Origin: Theionarchaea archaeon
GTDB lineage: Archaea; Methanobacteriota_B; Thermococci; Methanofastidiosales; SZ-28-30
Assembly (NCBI GenBank): GCA_018992565.1
Contig: JACVGW010000005.1
Span: 1-64,000 of the forward strand
Direction: 5' to 3'
DNA: 64,000 bases
Shown: piece after piece, positions 27,257 through 41,666 of the stretch
Numbering within the stretch: the first letter of the stretch is position 1
How the letters are laid out: each line of letters starts with the position of its first letter
Notes under the pieces: model-generated
The model's database searches: none
Told to the model about the DNA's origin: nothing
Seen by the model: only the letters and a program-made list of their open reading frames with translations
Translations under genes and position numbers: made by a program

Positions 27257-27756
27257 AGCACCACCTTCCCTACGCCAGTACAGCCGTAGATTTCAGCTAT
27301 CTCCCTGTTCTTCTCTTTCACCTTGGGAAGCCCGAGCTTCTCCCTTCTCTCATTCTCAAATTCAGTAACTTCATACAATCGTCCCAGTTCCCCTATCAAT
27401 CGCCCCTGTTCTCTGTAGGCAGGATGTATTGATCCTTCTTTGACTGCGATGTTCCTGATAGCAGCCATGAGATCAGGAATTCTCACATCCTGGGGACAGC
27501 GTTCAGAGCATGTATAACAGGCAGCACAGTACCATACAAAATCCTCTTTCAGGACTACATCCTTCAGTCCTAGAACAGCCATTCTGATAATTCTCCGTGG
27601 GTTGAATTTATCGCTCACAGAAGCCACAGGACAACCAGAGGAACAAGTAGCGCACTGCACACACTTCAGTATGTGTTCTCCTCCCGGTTGGGAAGCGATC
27701 TCATACTTGAATTGGGGATCCAGTTCGTCCATATTAATAATTTCCTTCTTTTTCAT
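27253..27756 (-). CDS. hdrC: Heterodisulfide reductase subunit C
   Basis: CVQCATCSSGCP and CAACYTCSERCP. Confidence 0.93.
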   Translation of the reverse strand: MKKKEIINMDELDPQFKYEIASQPGGEHILKCVQCATCSSGCPVASVSDKFNPRRIIRMAVLGLKDVVLKEDFVWYCAACYTCSERCPQDVRIPDLMAAIRNIAVKEGSIHPAYREQGRLIGELGRLYEVTEFENERREKLGLPKVKEKNREIAEIYGCTGVGKVVL

Positions 27757-28043
27757 TCTCTCGCTCCTTCAAGTACATTTTTCTATTTCTTTGGCTTTGA
27801 GGTCAAAGGTTTAGTCTTCCTTTACATTTATAAATCTTAGCCTTTTAATTTATATAGTTTTCTCTGTAGAAAATGTGAAAATTGATTTCCAATAAGGGGC
27901 GAGAAAGAGGAGGAAGGCAGATGATATGCCTGTTTTTAGAGGCAGTTAGAAAAGTGCCCTAGAAAACGTCGTTGAACAGATTTCACAAAATATTGTTAGA
28001 GTGGGAAGAATGTGTTAAGTAGATTAGAAAAAGGAAAGGAAAA

Positions 28044-28183
28044 CGTGTTTAAAAAAGCGTGTTTGTCGTGTTTGGGAGACCGGTTGCAGAACAACCGGTC
28101 TCGAAGGGGGTGAAAGATCCGTGCCGAAAGGTATTTATAGCTTAGGGACATAGCCTATACATCGGTCCATATACGATATGGAC
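28044..28183. promoter_or_regulatory. Regulatory region: three CGTGTTT repeats, 11-bp perfect inverted repeat, BRE/TATA, 8-bp operator-like palindrome
   Basis: CGTGTTT at 28044, 28058 and 28067; GAGACCGGTTG-cagaa-CAACCGGTCTC at 28076-28102; CCGAAAG g TATTTATA at 28124-28139; GTCCATAT-acg-ATATGGAC at 28165-28183. Confidence 0.6.
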
Positions 28184-28220
28184 ATACATAGCTACGGAGA
28201 AGTAGTATATTAATGTTGGG

Positions 28221-29198
28221 ATGAGTTATATGAGCAAACTTACAAGGAAGGAAAAATTGAGAAGATACCACGCAATATATAATCAAATTTATACAAATCC
28301 CAGAGTGCACGTTCATGAGATTTCTAAGAATGTTAAAATGGCACGAAATACAGTTTCCAGTTATTTAGATCATATGTATGATTCTCAGATGCTTTTTGGA
28401 CCGGAATTGAGACTTGAATATTATCTTGGGCTGGATAAGTACTTCCATCTTGTCAAGTTTGACGATCCTACCAGTGCATTTGAAGAGCTGCGGGAGATTC
28501 CCCAGATCGACTATTGCAGTTTGTTTCTGGGAGACTGGAACATCATGTACATTTCAGATGGAAAGTATGACCCTTCCCACATTGAAGGCTTCGAGTATTT
28601 GTTGTTCCAGGGAGTGAGAGGAGACATCACTACTCCCCGCGTTCCCCTTACTGACTGGATACCTGCCTTCAAGAGGATGAAGATTCAAGCACACGAGTTT
28701 GAACCCAATGGCCTTGAAAGAATAGGCCTGCCTGTTCATGAACCTCCACCGTGGGATGAGGAAGAGTGGAAGTTGTTCTATGAGTATGAGTATGACTTCA
28801 GAAAAAAAGTCACTCCCGCTTTGAGAAAGCACTTGATTTCGTCTGACAAGTTCTATCAATGGTTGGAAAGCGTCTGTGATCATACCACTGTCTTGATGAG
28901 GTTTTACCCTGATGGTTATCTCAACTACACCCACTTTGTATTCCTTCTCAGGACAGGCTACACTGATGCAGTGGTTGCACTCCTCTCAAACCTTCCTACC
29001 AGTATAGTGTGCACCCGTACTGAAGGTGGGTTGCTGGTATGGCTCAGCATCAAGTCAGATCTCACCTTTACTGATCTTTCAGCAACCCTGCAGTTCATGA
29101 GATCCAGCGGCATGATAGAGAAATTCAATCAGGCGATTGGAGTTCTTCACTACATTGAAGGTGAGGAAGAGCAGGGTCTTGTGGATGATGCTCTGTGA
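28221..29198 (+). CDS. Putative transcriptional regulator with tandem Lrp/AsnC-like (HTH + RAM) architecture
   Basis: N-terminal HTH (NPRVHVHEISKNVKMARNTVSSYLDHM), RAM-like segment with LGDWNIM, second degenerate unit starting WDEEEWKLF. Confidence 0.6.
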   Translation: MSYMSKLTRKEKLRRYHAIYNQIYTNPRVHVHEISKNVKMARNTVSSYLDHMYDSQMLFGPELRLEYYLGLDKYFHLVKFDDPTSAFEELREIPQIDYCSLFLGDWNIMYISDGKYDPSHIEGFEYLLFQGVRGDITTPRVPLTDWIPAFKRMKIQAHEFEPNGLERIGLPVHEPPPWDEEEWKLFYEYEYDFRKKVTPALRKHLISSDKFYQWLESVCDHTTVLMRFYPDGYLNYTHFVFLLRTGYTDAVVALLSNLPTSIVCTRTEGGLLVWLSIKSDLTFTDLSATLQFMRSSGMIEKFNQAIGVLHYIEGEEEQGLVDDAL

Positions 29199-29234
29199 AT
29201 TCTAGATATATCTATGACAAAAGATGAGCATGGG

Positions 29235-29285
29235 GCAAAAAAGAAAAAAGACCCATTACCCAATATGGAAAAAGCAACCCGGGTC
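29235..29285 (-). terminator. Hairpin plus U-tract terminator of the small-peptide gene
   Basis: Minus strand GACCC...GGGTC stem followed by TTTTTTCTTTTTTG. Confidence 0.55.
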
Positions 29286-29323
29286 CTCTAAGGACCACTG
29301 GAGTTATCTTGAACGTATGTGAT

Positions 29324-29407
29324 TTAGTTGGATGTCGGGACACCAGGTCCTCCACCCAGTTTTGTGGGGACACCAGGTCCTCCACCGAGCTTCCTTATGC
29401 AGTCCAT
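29324..29407 (-). CDS. 27-aa peptide MDCIRKLGGGPGVPTKLGGGPGVPTSN (absent from the ORF track)
   Basis: SD GAGGTGA 4 nt before ATG; BRE/TATA-like CAGAAAAC-TTCTAAAG at 29455-29440; 30-nt repeat with only synonymous differences; downstream terminator. Confidence 0.75.
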   Translation of the reverse strand: MDCIRKLGGGPGVPTKLGGGPGVPTSN

Positions 29408-29720
29408 TTTCTCACCTCTGTATCATTTATGAGTTCTACCTTTAGAAGTTTTCTGTTACTCCTCAATTTTTCGCAGATTTCGCGAGGGTTGTGCAGCCAG
29501 GTGGCCGGTTTCACAATCATCACTCATTTATCAGTTCATCTTTTCTAACCTTTTTAAGCTTAATGGAAATATATAAAGATACTCATGACTGATATTCGTT
29601 ATCTTTGTACCATGAAGAAATCAAGAATAGCAGAAACCCTTCTATCTGTTTCCTGTTACTATACTACACTGGTAAGTTACTTTCGGAAAAGCTTTAAAAT
29701 CCCATCTGTTAGTAGCTTCT

Positions 29721-30593
29721 ATGAAGAAAGTCATTGTTCATGGAGGAGCTGGAGACTTCTCAAAATCAGACCATGATATTACCGAATACAAAGAGGGCGT
29801 TGAGAATGCAGTTCAGGCGGGGTATGATGCACTGGTCACAGGAAATGCTCTGGACGCAGTAGTCCATGCAGTGTCTTCGCTTGAAGACAACCCTTTATTC
29901 AATGCAGGCACAGGGGCAGTCCTCAATGTTGAAGGAGAGGTGGAAGCTGATGCCATGGTCATGTTCCAGGGACGTATGGGCGCTGTGGGTGCGCTCAGAA
30001 ACATGAGAAACCCTGTTCAGGTGGCCCGCTTGGTTATGGATGAAACCGACCATGTCTTTCTCGTGGGAGAAGGTGCATATTCTTTTGGAAGACGTTGGTT
30101 TGACCACTACGACCCTGTAACAGAGGAACGTAGAGAGAAATTTGAAGAATTGAAATCCCACTTCCTGAGAGGTGATACCAGATGGAAAAAGAATGCCCAC
30201 CTCTATAGTGAGCATGGAACGGTGGGAGCTGTGGCTTTTGATGGTGATCTGGCTGCTGCCACTTCCACAGGCGGAATCTGGCTGAAGCTGAAGGGTCGAA
30301 TTGGAGATTCCCCACTTGCAGGATGTGGAACGTATGCAGGGGAGAAAGCGGCTCTCTCTGCTACAGGCATTGGTGAGAATATTGTCAGGTCAGTATTTTC
30401 AAAATCTGTTCATGATCTCCTGCCAGAATTCTCTCTCGAGAAAGCTCTGAAAATGATGCTTGCCCATTCACCGGAAACGGGAGCAATTGCCATTGACTCT
30501 GGTGGAACTGTTGAATATGCTTTTAATACCAACAATATGGCCTGGGCCATCTGTGACCGGGGAAATGTGTCAAGCTTTGAGGTAAACATATGA
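29721..30593 (+). CDS. iaaA: Isoaspartyl peptidase/L-asparaginase (Ntn hydrolase)
   Basis: IVHGGAG, LEDNPLFNAG, HG-TVGAVA nucleophile, GRIGDSP. Confidence 0.92.
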   Translation: MKKVIVHGGAGDFSKSDHDITEYKEGVENAVQAGYDALVTGNALDAVVHAVSSLEDNPLFNAGTGAVLNVEGEVEADAMVMFQGRMGAVGALRNMRNPVQVARLVMDETDHVFLVGEGAYSFGRRWFDHYDPVTEERREKFEELKSHFLRGDTRWKKNAHLYSEHGTVGAVAFDGDLAAATSTGGIWLKLKGRIGDSPLAGCGTYAGEKAALSATGIGENIVRSVFSKSVHDLLPEFSLEKALKMMLAHSPETGAIAIDSGGTVEYAFNTNNMAWAICDRGNVSSFEVNI

Positions 30594-31345
30594 ATCTGAA
30601 AAGGCTGGATACCGACATTGAGTCCTTCTTATCTGCAGAAGGTCGGAAATTCTACAGGAAGCTGCTTGAGTTTTCTCCCTACCTTAATGCATCAAACCAG
30701 ATGGTTATAATCCGGATGGGATATAATGATCACGGGTTGATTCATTCCAAGATTGTTACCTTATACGCCCTGCGTATTCTGGAGATTCTCAAACCCAGGG
30801 TACCCCTCAATATTGTCAAGGAAAACCTGGGGGACTACACCGATGTCCAGCTGGTGGTCGTGGCAGGAGCCTTTCTCCATGATGTGGGAAACATGGTGCA
30901 CAGACAAGGGCACGTCATGCACAGTTGTTACTTGACCTCCCAGCTTCTCCATCCAGTCCTCCCTGAGTACACAGCTCACCCTGCCCAGATGCTCTCTGAG
31001 ATTCTTCATTGCATCTACTCACACCACGAGGATACTCACTGCCTCACTACTGAAGCAGGCATTGTCAAAGTGGCAGATGGGTGTGACATGGCAGAAGGTA
31101 GAGCCAGAATACCCTACAGGCGGGGCAAAGTTGATATTCATTCTGTATCTGCTCTCTCTATCAAGAAAGTCATCCTTTCTCCAGGCGAAGAGAAACCACT
31201 CAAAATTGAAGTGTATATGGACAGCCAGGCGGGCATTTTCCAGATTCAGGAAGTCCTGGGAGCAAAGGTCAGAACCTCTGGGCTCATGGACTACCTGGAA
31301 ATCGTAGGCATTCATAGAAACAAGAACCTCCCTATTACACTGTGA
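30590..31345 (+). CDS. HD-domain metal-dependent phosphohydrolase
   Basis: GYNDHG..H, FLHDVGN, SHH, VADGCDM. Confidence 0.88.
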   Translation: MNLKRLDTDIESFLSAEGRKFYRKLLEFSPYLNASNQMVIIRMGYNDHGLIHSKIVTLYALRILEILKPRVPLNIVKENLGDYTDVQLVVVAGAFLHDVGNMVHRQGHVMHSCYLTSQLLHPVLPEYTAHPAQMLSEILHCIYSHHEDTHCLTTEAGIVKVADGCDMAEGRARIPYRRGKVDIHSVSALSIKKVILSPGEEKPLKIEVYMDSQAGIFQIQEVLGAKVRTSGLMDYLEIVGIHRNKNLPITL

Positions 31346-31384
31346 CAGGAACTCAACCTACATAAAAAAAGGGAGTGAAAAGGA

Positions 31385-31594
31385 TCACTCAAACATTCGT
31401 TTCTTGGCCAGTGCGATATCTTCGGCCTTGACCGTCTTTCTCCCTGCATGGTCTGCCAGCGTTATGGCTTCGCGGGCAACTTCAATAGCTGTCTCTTGCA
31501 GGTGAGCCGCGAGTTCTTTGGCCGCATCTTCTGACACACGGTGAGCACCAGCTTTTCGAATCAACTTGTCCACAGATGCTAGTGGTAATGCCAT
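31385..31594 (-). CDS. Archaeal histone (HMf family)
   Basis: LPLASVDKLIRKAGAHRVSEDAA...HAGRKTVKAEDI; SD GGAGGT. Confidence 0.96.
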   Translation of the reverse strand: MALPLASVDKLIRKAGAHRVSEDAAKELAAHLQETAIEVAREAITLADHAGRKTVKAEDIALAKKRMFE

Positions 31595-31779
31595 CGTGAT
31601 ACCTCCTTTTGGGTCAGTGAATTTTGCTTTTTTTCTATGCCACTTTTAATGGCTCGAAAAGCCACCTTTTATAATAAAAGTCTTCCTTTATAAGTTTTTC
31701 GGTAAAGCCACTGCTTGTAACCTGCAATTAGAAAACTCATCCTTTGTGAGGGGGCAAAATTTCGCAAACTCCGAGCAGC

Positions 31780-39000: not shown

Positions 39001-39768
39001 ATGCGCGCGTGTGTTACTGCAGATATTGAGCAGTTCTCAGATGCTATAACCAAGTATGGGTGTTTTCGTGAGTGTTCTCAGTCACCAGATGACTACCATG
39101 CTCTGAGAATACTCCTCGATATATTCTGTGAGGAGGACATACCTTCAACACTATTTGTTCTGGGTGCATATGCAGAAAGTAACCCGTCAATCCTGGATTT
39201 ATCGGGCGAGAATGGCCATGAAATAGCATCTCATGGGTACACACACCTGGACTTGCGTTCACTGTCATCTGCGGCTTTGCGAGAAGAGCTTTCCCGTTGT
39301 CATCACCTTTTTACTGCCAGGGGATTTCGTGCTCCCTACTATGGGTTTAACACTTTGATGGTGGAGTACCTGGAGCCCTATTTCGTGTATGACAGTTCCC
39401 AGATACCTGTGAGAAGCGCATCAAGAATGGATAGATTCCTCAATGTGTACATGCTCTCCAAATCACTCATGGAAATACCCATATCAACGGTGGGCATAAT
39501 CCCCCTTACCAGCATGATCCTTCGTATGTGCCCCTTATCCCTGGCAAAGATGATTGCCCTTTATGTTCTAAAGAGAGATGGGTACATGGTAATCAACTTC
39601 CATCCCTGGGAGTTTTCATGCGTACTCCCGGATGTCCCAATTCCTTCTTACGTCACGAAGAATACTGGACCTGCATTCACGAAGAAGGTGAAAGCATACT
39701 TGAGATTCCTCAGAGGGCTGGAGGTCGATTTTGTTACTATGGAGCAGATCTATGAACTCTACAGATAG
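39001..39768 (+). CDS. Polysaccharide deacetylase family protein (CE4/NodB)
   Basis: TADIE, HEIASHGYTH, GFRAP, YDSS, NFHPWE. Confidence 0.88.
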   Translation: MRACVTADIEQFSDAITKYGCFRECSQSPDDYHALRILLDIFCEEDIPSTLFVLGAYAESNPSILDLSGENGHEIASHGYTHLDLRSLSSAALREELSRCHHLFTARGFRAPYYGFNTLMVEYLEPYFVYDSSQIPVRSASRMDRFLNVYMLSKSLMEIPISTVGIIPLTSMILRMCPLSLAKMIALYVLKRDGYMVINFHPWEFSCVLPDVPIPSYVTKNTGPAFTKKVKAYLRFLRGLEVDFVTMEQIYELYR

Positions 39769-40303
39769 GAAACGGCTGGCCAGATATGCCTGGAACCACA
39801 AGCACTTGTTGTACAGCTATGTGCTGCTGAGGATGGCCATGATTTCTCCATTTGTTGGGTTGAATGCATTCCTTCACAGACTGCGAGGAGTGGTCATGGG
39901 GAAAGAAGTGAAAATTGCTCATGATGTTATAATAGACCCGGTGGAGCCGGCACGTGTTGTACTTGAAGATTTCGTCACCATAAGCCCACGAGTTACCATC
40001 TTCGCCCACAGCAACCCGACCTTACCGCTCTACGAGTATATGGGACCTCGGATGGTCAGCCACGTGAGAGTGAAGAAAGGCAGCTGGATTGGAACAGGAG
40101 CTATCCTTCTACCAGGAGTGACTGTAGGAGAATATACAGTGGTGGGAGCAGGAGCAGTGGTTACGAAAGATATCCCAGCTCATGTACTGGCTGCAGGGGT
40201 TCCTGCAAAAGTCATCAAGTCCCTGACCTGTCAGTATGAGATCCCTTCAGGTGCCACAAGAGACAGAGTCCTGGTTCTCGATGATGTGGCAGAGAAAAAA
40301 TGA
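39752..40303 (+). CDS. Hexapeptide-repeat O-acyltransferase
   Basis: WIGTGAILLPGVTVGEYTVVGAGAVVTKD, AGVPAK. Confidence 0.88.
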   Translation: MNSTDRKRLARYAWNHKHLLYSYVLLRMAMISPFVGLNAFLHRLRGVVMGKEVKIAHDVIIDPVEPARVVLEDFVTISPRVTIFAHSNPTLPLYEYMGPRMVSHVRVKKGSWIGTGAILLPGVTVGEYTVVGAGAVVTKDIPAHVLAAGVPAKVIKSLTCQYEIPSGATRDRVLVLDDVAEKK

Positions 40304-40358
40304 GGGCAGTAACACCCTTCCACATATACTGACTCATCTTCCAAGATGTATAGCTCAA

Positions 40359-41666
40359 TTATTCTGTTGATCGAGTAATGTGGACGTTTCTGGCCAAAAC
40401 GTGAGATGAAATACAGGGAAATCCCACTTCAGCCCACCAGTGAACCACCTTCTGTTCTTTCGCCACAGCCTCAATGTTCAGATAGAGCTGCAACATATTA
40501 TCCGACACCCTGATATTCTTTGTAGAACCCACAATCTCGCCATTCTTGATCACCAGGATGGCATCACGAGGAATGGTGGAGAAGTCTCCTGTCTGCACAT
40601 TCTGAAACCTGGTATACCAGGTGTTGGTGAGATAGAGCCCGTTTTTGACGTTCTGAAAGAGTTCTTCCGTGCTGTAGTCTCCTGGTAACATCCAGATATT
40701 CAGCGGTTCTGGCTTTACCAGTCCTGCATTGGCAGTGGTTTCTGTGTTCATTGCTCTGGCTGTTGAGGTATTGTGAAGATAGGTTTTCATTACACCTTTC
40801 TCTATCACATGGGTGTCTGTGGTGGGTACTCCCTCATCATCTGTTCTCATTGTGGCCAATCCCCTGGGTGTATCAATAACAGTCACTGCGTCTGAGGCCA
40901 CCTTCTCTCCGATTTTCCCGCCGTACATGGAACGTCCCGCCAGGACGTTGAATGCGGAAGTCATATCCACAGAATAATTCAAAATAGAACCCACAAAGAG
41001 AGGTGAGAGTATAACATCATACGTGCCTTCTTCCCCCTGTACAGGATCTCTCGCCAGCCGGGCAAATTCCCCTGCTTCTTTCCCTGCCTTTTCAGGATCA
41101 AATCCCTTGAGAGTGGAAGAACAGGTCACACTATGCCCAGAGGCCTCTTTCTGAGAGAAAGCCCGGATGGAAAGCTCAATAGAAGTCTTCTCATCCTGAA
41201 CCTCCACGTTTTGCGATGTGGAAAGCGCCACACGTTCATTGACTACCTGCAGGGCACCGAAAGTAGTATCAGCATGCTCTGTGGCCGTGTTTATCGCGGC
41301 CATGATATAATCTGCATGATCAGTAATCCCTCTTAATCCCGGATCACTTTCAATATCTGGATATTTGAAAGGGCCTTCAGCAATCCCACCATATTCTGGA
41401 TTTTCCTTGCTGATTCTGGCCAGCTTCACTGCCTGTTTCAGTGTCTCATCGATTATTTCAACATTCCTGATCTCTGTGAGTACGACTCTCCTCTCATACA
41501 CCAGAAAAATATTCAGCACAGTCTCAAACCAAGTCTTGGCGATATCGATCTCATTGTTGGAGAACCGCACCTGCTGGTTACACGAGTCAACTCCTTTGAC
41601 GATAACCTCTGTTGCTCCCAGTTCAAGCGCCTTCTTCACTGCGTACCTCGTATTCTCTATCATCAT
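40359..41666 (-). CDS. tldE: TldE/PmbA family protein
   Basis: VRFSNNEI, DDEGVP, YTRFQN; lacks HExxGH; paired with tldD. Confidence 0.85.
   Translation of the reverse strand: MMIENTRYAVKKALELGATEVIVKGVDSCNQQVRFSNNEIDIAKTWFETVLNIFLVYERRVVLTEIRNVEIIDETLKQAVKLARISKENPEYGGIAEGPFKYPDIESDPGLRGITDHADYIMAAINTATEHADTTFGALQVVNERVALSTSQNVEVQDEKTSIELSIRAFSQKEASGHSVTCSSTLKGFDPEKAGKEAGEFARLARDPVQGEEGTYDVILSPLFVGSILNYSVDMTSAFNVLAGRSMYGGKIGEKVASDAVTVIDTPRGLATMRTDDEGVPTTDTHVIEKGVMKTYLHNTSTARAMNTETTANAGLVKPEPLNIWMLPGDYSTEELFQNVKNGLYLTNTWYTRFQNVQTGDFSTIPRDAILVIKNGEIVGSTKNIRVSDNMLQLYLNIEAVAKEQKVVHWWAEVGFPCISSHVLARNVHITRSTE

Follow-up and report, generated by a model that had tools for sequence, protein, structure and literature searches.

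In the RRNPP cassettes of Firmicutes and phages (Rap-Phr, PlcR-PapR, NprR-NprX, Rgg-SHP, and AimR-AimP), a tiny peptide gene adjoins the gene of a cytoplasmic helix-turn-helix (HTH) protein. Some of the propeptides have a Sec-type N terminus and others do not, their C-terminal end is conserved, and a genome can hold many paralogous pairs; one report counts more than 25 receptor/propeptide pairs in Paenibacillus (PMC7425212), and another describes tandemly duplicated pheromone units inside one propeptide (PMC11343458). Here, we analyze a gene pair that resembles these cassettes in arrangement, in the organization of its peptides, and in its many paralogues. It consists of a 27-codon mini-gene and, converging on it across a spacer of 125 nucleotides (nt), the gene of a 325-amino-acid (aa) protein, and it lies in a 64,000-nt stretch of DNA from a Theionarchaea archaeon (positions 1 to 64,000 of contig JACVGW010000005.1, GenBank assembly GCA_018992565.1; hereafter, the window), which corresponds to contig C138 of a 2.8-Mb genome bin (G000; 154 contigs, 88% complete). 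By analogy with the cassettes of Firmicutes, we propose, at a probability of roughly 0.45, that the mini-gene and its neighbor, whose predicted fold is that of a doubled Lrp/AsnC-type regulator, form a cognate peptide/regulator unit. The pair differs from RRNPP systems in that the fold of the partner is of the Lrp/AsnC type and not a tetratricopeptide repeat (TPR) receptor, in that it occurs in Archaea, in the convergent orientation of genes that often share stop-codon bases, and in the Gly/Pro-rich tails of the peptides. Because the receptor fold differs, we do not consider the pair a member of the RRNPP family, and any secretion, processing, re-import, or binding of the Theionarchaea peptides would be putative.

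Three further systems offer points of comparison. The RAM domains of Lrp/AsnC (feast/famine) regulators are the ligand sites of these proteins, and the known ligands are amino acids, not peptides. On the Enterococcus plasmid pCF10, the precursor gene prgQ and the receptor gene prgX converge and yield overlapping RNAs, with antisense effects adding to peptide sensing; unlike the present pair, that system resides on a bacterial plasmid, has another receptor fold, and overlaps in its 5′ regions rather than at its 3′ ends. The small proteins sP26 and sP36 of Methanosarcina mazei bind nitrogen-metabolism proteins and are, as the peptides described here may be, archaeal stand-alone mini-proteins of 20 to 60 aa that bind a larger protein, but their sequences are not alike, and they neither come with paired paralogues of a regulator nor show family expansion. 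To our knowledge, no peptide-mediated signaling, either between or within cells, has been shown in Archaea, and a search of literature titles and the opening portions of abstracts returned no paper that describes a peptide and its receptor as a pair in Archaea or a small peptide gene coupled to an Lrp-type protein.

The 27-codon open reading frame (ORF) at 29407-29324 on the minus strand is a genuine, conserved small-protein gene. Its product is the 27-residue peptide that a first-pass annotation, made from the letters and an ORF list, had described as containing two near-identical cassettes, and the two copies indeed differ at 3 of 30 nt, each time synonymously. The DNA of the mini-gene is single-copy in its own genome, where no second copy of the peptide was found, and among 41 related genomes, it is matched at an E value of ≤0.001 by only G001 (a member of the same genus; 85% identity) and G002 (73%); a degenerate DNA pattern built on the N terminus and core of the peptide and run over the genome contigs likewise matched in two same-genus genomes only. 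G001 encodes an identical peptide, with 5 synonymous and 0 nonsynonymous changes relative to the window and a stop codon changed from TAA to TGA. With about 0.276 of random changes expected to be synonymous, five of five corresponds to a P value of ~0.0016 by our arithmetic, and the ORF is therefore more than a chance occurrence. G002 has a one-cassette version of 15 aa.

A metagenome scan with the 325-aa protein recovered three loci (L059, L060, and L061, the last two identical across this region) with proteins 67 to 69% identical to the query, each with a homologous two-cassette ORF of 30 codons at the equivalent position. The peptide is thus conserved in 5 distinct related loci, and the mini-ORF keeps its position and synteny in all three metagenome loci, G001, and G002. 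Between L059 and L060, the mini-ORF shows 6 synonymous and 3 nonsynonymous nucleotide changes, the latter amounting to 2 residue changes that both lie outside the cassettes; within the cassettes, the counts are 4 and 0. When the two cassettes of one sequence are compared with each other, every difference is synonymous, in each of four sequences (3/3, 4/4, 4/4, and 6/6). The window and G001 are separated from the metagenome clade by the same two replacements in both cassettes and by a 9-nt in-frame length difference, the metagenome loci having 3 extra residues between the cassettes. Cassette residues other than Gly and Pro are conserved too, and all two-cassette peptides end in Asn; Cys3 is not conserved, being Ser in the metagenome loci, and the "leader" before the cassettes comprises only 5 residues and varies among loci. 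These substitution patterns indicate that the peptide is under purifying selection. An identical synonymous change is found in both cassettes within G001 and likewise within L060, so gene conversion contributes to cassette identity besides selection; the original attribution of this identity to selection on the peptide accordingly stands only in part, and the view that the mini-gene is a stand-alone gene, conserved, led by a Shine-Dalgarno (SD) site, and selected at the peptide level, is supported.

A candidate transcript, which the first-pass annotation had suggested looking for, is represented in one metatranscriptome run by a 157-nt contig that spans 29252-29408 with 0 differences. The contig starts 1 nt ahead of the ATG and stops 2 nt short of the T6-C-T6 run, noting that contigs cannot prove RNA ends. 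Across two RNA runs, the mini-gene and parts of the regulator gene are the only places on which contigs of this organism fall, and the uncovered parts prove nothing. Another RNA contig (X19 record 14; 31422-31598, with 14 differences) was not taken as originating from this organism. DNA of the focal stretch is present in runs of 7 studies, mostly of sediments, with 17 of the 20 rows possibly representing the DNA's own source.

The partner of the mini-gene, read in the first-pass annotation as a double Lrp/AsnC-like regulator, bears out that description at the level of the fold. An AlphaFold model built with 21 sequences (predicted local distance difference test score [pLDDT], 88.6; predicted template modeling [TM] score, 0.85) shows a winged HTH (wHTH) followed by an alpha/beta domain, twice, and predicted helices at residues 9-25, 31-38, and 42-54 and again at 180-189, 197-204, and 208-218 superpose on Lrp/AsnC structures. 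The top full-length Foldseek match is the siroheme decarboxylase NirDL (PDB 4ch7; 332 columns; E value of 5.9e-6; TM scores of 0.51/0.53; identity of ~10%), followed by single Lrp/AsnC regulators (7fby, 2cg4, 2cyy, 1i1g, and others; probability of 1.00), each matching one half of the protein. Alignments of 129 to 156 columns to the 140- to 157-aa Lrp/AsnC chains include the RAM part, the PDB titles of such matches name complexes with Ile, Gln, Leu, and Phe, and the listed matches include no TPR protein. By sequence, the only Pfam hit is HTH_24, at 17.5 bits (cutoff of 21.9); AsnC_trans_reg gave no match at an E value of ≤0.1, and NCBIfam gave no match. Of the 23 close homologues, one carries the name of an Lrp-family regulator and one that of a wHTH-domain protein, the rest being labeled hypothetical, and orthologues begin at the second ATG of the ORF.

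In the model, then, each half resembles an Lrp/AsnC regulator, with a wHTH and then a RAM-type alpha/beta domain, but both units occupy one 325-aa chain, in contrast to chains of ~150 aa that each pair with a second chain, and the protein belongs to a lineage-specific family that the Pfam models do not reach. The fusion of two Lrp/AsnC-like units is shared with the siroheme decarboxylases NirDL and AhbA-AhbB (4ch7 and 4czd). Unlike these enzymes, to which identity is about 10%, the present family has 15 to 23 copies per genome (versus one or two) and no heme-pathway neighbors, and its modeled N-terminal helices look like a normal DNA-binding wHTH, with nothing to suggest enzymatic activity. 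Co-folding of two copies of the L059 regulator with its 30-aa peptide, run with no controls, gave scores of 0.20 and 0.05, where the mark was 0.32, and speaks neither for nor against binding.

The 325-aa protein has 18 matches in its own genome, and a family profile has 20, 23, 1, and 1 matches in G001, G002, G003, and G004, respectively. The family is found in 5 of 133 genomes of the phylum, with the 15 to 23 copies per genome occurring in one genus, and in 0 of 97 genomes of family f5; 273 family representatives were found among 1.84 billion proteins. To judge from these similarity searches, the regulator family is lineage specific. Five half-size relatives in the window's own genome (C151:5468-5791, C31:12706-13164, C10:7348-7656, C67:404-625, and C154:22-474) match the second wHTH-plus-RAM unit only; their open frames are of 139 to 322 aa, and the one on C10 still has a convergent mini-ORF of the long type described below.

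The pairing of mini-gene and regulator recurs, and the two are inherited together. The first-pass annotation had named as a check the presence of SD-led short ORFs with GGGPG-like cores beside homologues and paralogues of the regulator, and the outcome was positive in that short ORFs with GGPG-like tails recur beside the paralogues. We searched for mini-ORFs on the opposite strand that stop between −90 and +400 nt from the matched end, span 12 to 110 codons, have an SD-like 4-mer within 16 nt, and contain at least 4 Gly among their last 14 residues. Such ORFs occur at 26 of the 59 places with a paralogue or orthologue of the 325-aa protein (7/18 in G000, 7/18 in G001, 9/19 in G002, 1/1 in G003, 0/1 in G004, and 2/2 in metagenomes), and the mini-ORF adjoins the regulator gene convergently in all five focal-type places. 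When a stricter Gly-tail filter is applied to the whole 2.8-Mb genome, 24 stop sites pass, of which 6 lie beside a regulator paralogue, compared with ~0.5 expected by chance (our arithmetic).

The feature common to these mini-proteins is a glycine-rich C-terminal tail, in which a run of Gly is followed by Pro and which usually ends in Pro-Gly (Pro-Thr in the focal cassettes). They assort into three types: (i) a long type of ~60 to 68 aa with a Sec-like N terminus, consisting of a basic and a hydrophobic stretch (judged by eye, without a signal-peptide predictor); (ii) a type of ~28 to 40 aa, with a shared N-terminal motif containing Phe-Glu-Pro and no signal peptide; and (iii) the focal type, which has no signal peptide and a tail unit that is present twice. 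On this evidence, the mini-proteins form a family that has not been described before, and the focal peptide is its member with a duplicated tail and no signal peptide, as far as sequence can tell. The tail is the most conserved part of the peptide in two of three informative comparisons, which involve both orthologues and paralogues. Orthologues on G000:C81 and G001:C6 are identical at 18/22 positions of the N terminus, 17/28 of the middle, and 11/12 of the tail, and the corresponding values for paralogues C81 and C10 are 12/22, 10/32, and 10/12. The closest tail to that of the focal peptide belongs to the G002:C79 peptide, which has the Gly-Gly-Gly-Pro-Gly-x-Pro-Thr pattern of the focal cassette. 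The class II motif occurs at three places in the genome, one paired, one at a contig end, and one facing a gapped ORF with a weak likeness to the second RAM unit (hhalign probability of 17%). The ORFs beside a mini-ORF on C149 are unrelated to the regulator family; this mini-ORF is uninformative because it lies only 98 nt from the contig end.

Peptide types follow the regulator phylogeny. In a quickly built maximum-likelihood tree, which covers 51 regulators and omits 8 rows shorter than 230 aa, the focal type forms one clade (support of 100), and the peptide types require 13 changes, compared with a mean of 22.3 after shuffling and with 0 of 200 shuffles as low, a statistic that overstates the signal since kin share labels. 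The stop codons of the 21 nonfocal pairs are closely apposed: 10 pairs share 2 nt, 4 abut, 3 are separated by gaps of 2 to 12 nt, and 4 overlap by 44 to 84 nt. Spacers of the focal type measure 125 to 139 nt in four of five pairs (G002 is not included).

Upstream signals are also held in common. Mini-ORFs share a TATA box ~33 to 40 nt before the start, and the nonconsensus TATA box of the focal gene aligns, in both position and flanks, with the consensus box of G000:C127. The GGTGA core of the SD site, noted as strong in the first-pass annotation, is kept in all five aligned loci and also precedes the paired mini-ORFs of paralogues. Farther upstream, the 8-mer TGCGAAAA recurs before the mini-ORFs at G000:C127 and G002:C79 and, inverted, at L059. 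In three related long-type mini-ORFs (G000:C81, G000:C10, and G001:C6), we observed a shared inverted repeat (5-nt arms and 4-nt spacer) within CACATGTTGGCAAAC, ~85 to 95 nt before the starts, which is a candidate operator of this subclade. Downstream of the focal gene, the pairing of the hairpin is kept in G001 by a change on both sides but is not alignable in distant loci. Transcription in Archaea stops at oligo-T stretches. A scan for bacterial-type promoters and terminators found 0 sites, so the earlier claim that the mini-gene has its own hairpin and U-tract terminator, although backed by the hairpin and oligo-T runs, holds in the archaeal oligo-T sense only.

Database and composition searches were otherwise silent. 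Pfam and NCBIfam, including their models of precursors of ribosomally synthesized and posttranslationally modified peptides (RiPPs), returned nothing above any cutoff for 8 peptides; an identification as AimP_fam was rejected (19.1 bits versus a cutoff of 35, covering the hydrophobic N terminus only). In the ESM Atlas, all feature scores for one long-type peptide were 0.79, below lead level. Tandem Repeats Finder reported an A-rich 7-mer as its only output and not the two-copy cassette repeat, and an Rfam search of 27700-29900 gave five chance-level matches (E values of 0.47 to 6.8, far under gathering scores), none of them on the mini-gene. The features of the focal locus are listed in Table 1.

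Table 1. Features of the focal mini-gene and of the convergent regulator gene (window coordinates)
Feature	Position	Strand	Basis and remarks
27-codon mini-gene, focal member of the Gly-tail peptide family	29324..29407	-	ORF list; stop codon included
Cassette 1 (codons 6-15)	29363..29392	-	27/30 nt shared with cassette 2
Cassette 2 (codons 16-25)	29333..29362	-	Partner of cassette 1
Shine-Dalgarno site GAGGTGA, 4 nt 5′ of ATG	29412..29418	-	Read from sequence
Putative promoter element: transcription factor B recognition element (BRE)/TATA-like, ~33-48 nt 5′ of ATG	29440..29455	-	Conserved block in intergenic alignment; promoter function inferred
Candidate operator: semiconserved upstream motif with TGCGAAAA (minus strand)	29465..29485	.	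Intergenic and paralogue alignments
5-bp hairpin in 3′ untranslated region	29282..29296	-	Read from sequence
Oligo-T run	29269-29273	-	Read from sequence
T6-C-T6 run, likely archaeal transcription stop of mini-gene	29237..29249	-	Read from sequence
325-aa fused double Lrp/AsnC-fold protein (wHTH+RAM twice; predicted)	28221..29198	+	AlphaFold and Foldseek; likely true start is ATG at 28230
Almost invariant element 5′ of regulator gene	28075..28232	+	Alignment of 4-5 loci

Conservation of the element preceding the focal regulator gene far exceeds that of the genes on either side: the 4 to 5 aligned loci agree at almost every column, although their regulator proteins are only 63 to 69% identical. 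It comprises a hairpin with 11-bp arms (whose loop alone is variable), an SD-like site with a 10-codon GTG-initiated ORF, a TATA-like box, and a palindrome with 8-bp arms. The element is single-copy in its own genome and has no match in Rfam. In DNA run X17, its depth is 15 to 54, versus ~7 in the surrounding DNA, and contigs end there in several alternative ways, which would be expected if coexisting relatives share the element.

The focal pair is situated between hdrA, hdrB, and hdrC-like genes on the regulator side and genes for an Asparaginase_2 protein (E value of 8.9e-78) and an HD-domain protein on the mini-gene side. A block of genes for the asparaginase, the HD-domain hydrolase, and an archaeal histone (29721-31594 in the window) is kept in strict synteny with the pair and hdrABC at every focal-type locus; in the window, the first two of these genes have a 4-nt overlap. 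No modifying enzyme, RiPP recognition element (RRE) protein, protease, or transporter adjoins the focal pair, whose neighbors are an Hdr subunit, the asparaginase, and the HD hydrolase, and none recurs at 6 paired paralogue loci (7 loci scanned); the neighboring genes of the scanned paralogue loci are unrelated to one another and to heme synthesis. Apart from the pairs, Gly-tail peptide genes without a regulator-family member beside them were also seen. On G000:C147 (L062; 55539-59451), an unpaired peptide with a Sec-like N terminus (58278-58084, minus strand) lies directly upstream of a KaiC-like gene of 176 aa and ~1 kb from a radical SAM/PqqD/SPASM gene; it is divergent from a 368-aa ORF without a Pfam match, whose candidacy as a regulator-family member was rejected (hhalign probability of 1.6%). 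The peptide family might thus also be employed in a RiPP-type cluster at this locus. On G000:C98 (L069; 5478-5669), an orphan long-type gene lies between thioredoxin-reductase-like and cation-efflux genes. Around a regulator paralogue on G000:C13 (~39608-40432), two Cys-rich, SD-led mini-ORFs of 49 and 54 aa, located 514 nt downstream and 840 nt upstream, resemble radical-SAM-type precursor peptides.

In these pairs, each mini-protein is encoded tail to tail with its own paralogue of the fused protein. If the two form a cognate unit, the partner would control the peptide promoter, and its RAM-type ligand domains would sense the peptide as a whole or the C-terminal tail of the peptide. Because it has no export signal, the focal peptide would act inside the cell or leave it by a non-Sec route, and its two identical cassettes may serve as a pair of ligand units that are set free by cleavage or that dock one on each RAM half. 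In its widest form, which we hold tentatively and think rather doubtful, the proposal is that ~20 doubled Lrp-fold regulators per Theionarchaea genome would each sense the glycine-rich tail of their own mini-protein, the long type being secreted and the short types cytoplasmic or otherwise exported, in what would be the first archaeal peptide receptor/ligand system; the focal pair, with its duplicated cassette and almost invariant control element, would be the conserved core member.

Several points weigh against the proposal of a cognate unit. Peptide binding, export, cleavage (at Lys or Gly-Gly), and promoter regulation are steps that we infer only. The Gly-tail filter was devised after the first examples had been seen, and 33 of the 59 places (3 of them with <300 nt of downstream DNA) have neither a Gly-tail mini-ORF nor another convergent ORF with a strong SD site. 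The sequence of the partner does not reach the Lrp/AsnC family models of Pfam, and its best structural match is an enzyme, not a regulator. The tree demonstrates co-inheritance, not co-evolution, and the RNA contigs are strandless, with DNA carryover possible. The focal pair may work differently from the others because its peptide has no signal peptide and its spacer is 125 to 139 nt, whereas the stop codons of most other pairs overlap. Lastly, an asparaginase gene is kept beside all focal-type loci, so synteny alone cannot assign the partner of the mini-gene.

Lrp-type regulators often control adjacent genes. A simple regulator and its local target, in which the doubled protein controls the mini-gene and the peptide never binds it but has a separate job (for example, as an antimicrobial that is secreted, as a peptide that binds metal or sits at the surface, or as a small protein that modulates another), would account for the pairing and co-inheritance just as well. 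Each mini-ORF has a promoter of its own, with a conserved motif upstream, the Sec-like N termini of the long type would suit an extracellular role, and the peptide on C98 has no adjacent family member, all of which fit this account. We nonetheless rate it as rather unlikely, in that a regulator and its target seldom converge with shared stop-codon bases (as in 10/21 pairs here), diversification to ~20 pairs per genome resembles that of receptor/ligand families (PMC7425212, on Paenibacillus, describes one), and the tail is conserved while the rest of the peptide drifts. Distinctly unlikely, in our estimation, is a translational or antisense switch, by which slow translation of Gly/Pro codons or converging transcription (through interference or RNA pairing) tunes the regulator and no released peptide is involved. 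Nothing but the Gly/Pro-rich 3′ end is shared by all three peptide types, and the stops share bases, overlap, or abut in 17 of the 21 nonfocal pairs, such that the two mRNAs must overlap. Such a switch, however, would leave needless the signal peptides and the conserved N-terminal motif of the other types, along with the conservation of cassette residues other than Gly and Pro; the spacer of the focal pair contains its own oligo-T runs, and the mini-gene transcript folds no better than shuffled sequences (z score of 0.08).

The remaining explanations concern the product or the reality of the mini-gene. That the peptide is a RiPP precursor, a multicore substrate of enzymes encoded elsewhere in a pathway controlled by the regulator, had been half of the first-pass interpretation. 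Repeated identical cores do occur in multicore RiPP precursors, and the unpaired peptide on C147 lies near a radical SAM gene, but with no maturase-type gene at the focal pair and none recurrent at the 6 paired paralogue loci, this half is weak and the explanation quite improbable; Cys is not conserved, no RiPP precursor model matches any of the 8 peptides, and, in contrast to cyanobactin-type precursors, maturase, protease, and RRE genes are absent from the cluster. At all 6 focal-type loci, the mini-gene and the asparaginase gene are transcribed divergently, and the two-cassette peptides end in Asn, from which one could suppose that the mini-protein modulates, or is processed by, this isoaspartyl peptidase/asparaginase, in analogy to the small Methanosarcina proteins that bind enzymes of nitrogen metabolism. 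We consider this very improbable: that synteny covers close relatives only, the asparaginase gene has its own consensus promoter, and none of the 21 other Gly-tail mini-ORFs is beside an asparaginase in the loci scanned, all being beside a regulator paralogue. Finally, a chance ORF on a conserved noncoding element or small RNA is hardly credible. The ORF is very short and was passed over by Tandem Repeats Finder and Rfam; against this stand the synonymous-only substitutions, the exchange of one stop codon for another, the in-frame length difference, the conserved SD site, and the unremarkable RNA fold, and the overlapping plus-strand frame has its residues altered at the very same sites.

We therefore return to the cognate peptide/regulator unit as the reading that we favor. 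The family offers no fewer than 26 gene pairs in which the partners are evident and amenable to testing, namely, a peptide of 15 to 40 aa and a soluble protein of ~320 aa. A conservative reading still adds a small-protein family, a fused Lrp subfamily, a convergent shared-stop architecture, and an ultraconserved noncoding element, the first two being new and the others unusual and ultraconserved, respectively. If the peptides are ligands, the known range of RAM-domain ligands would widen from amino acids to peptides, and, if the proposal is true, uncultured sediment archaea would gain a communication or self-sensing system comparable to RRNPP.

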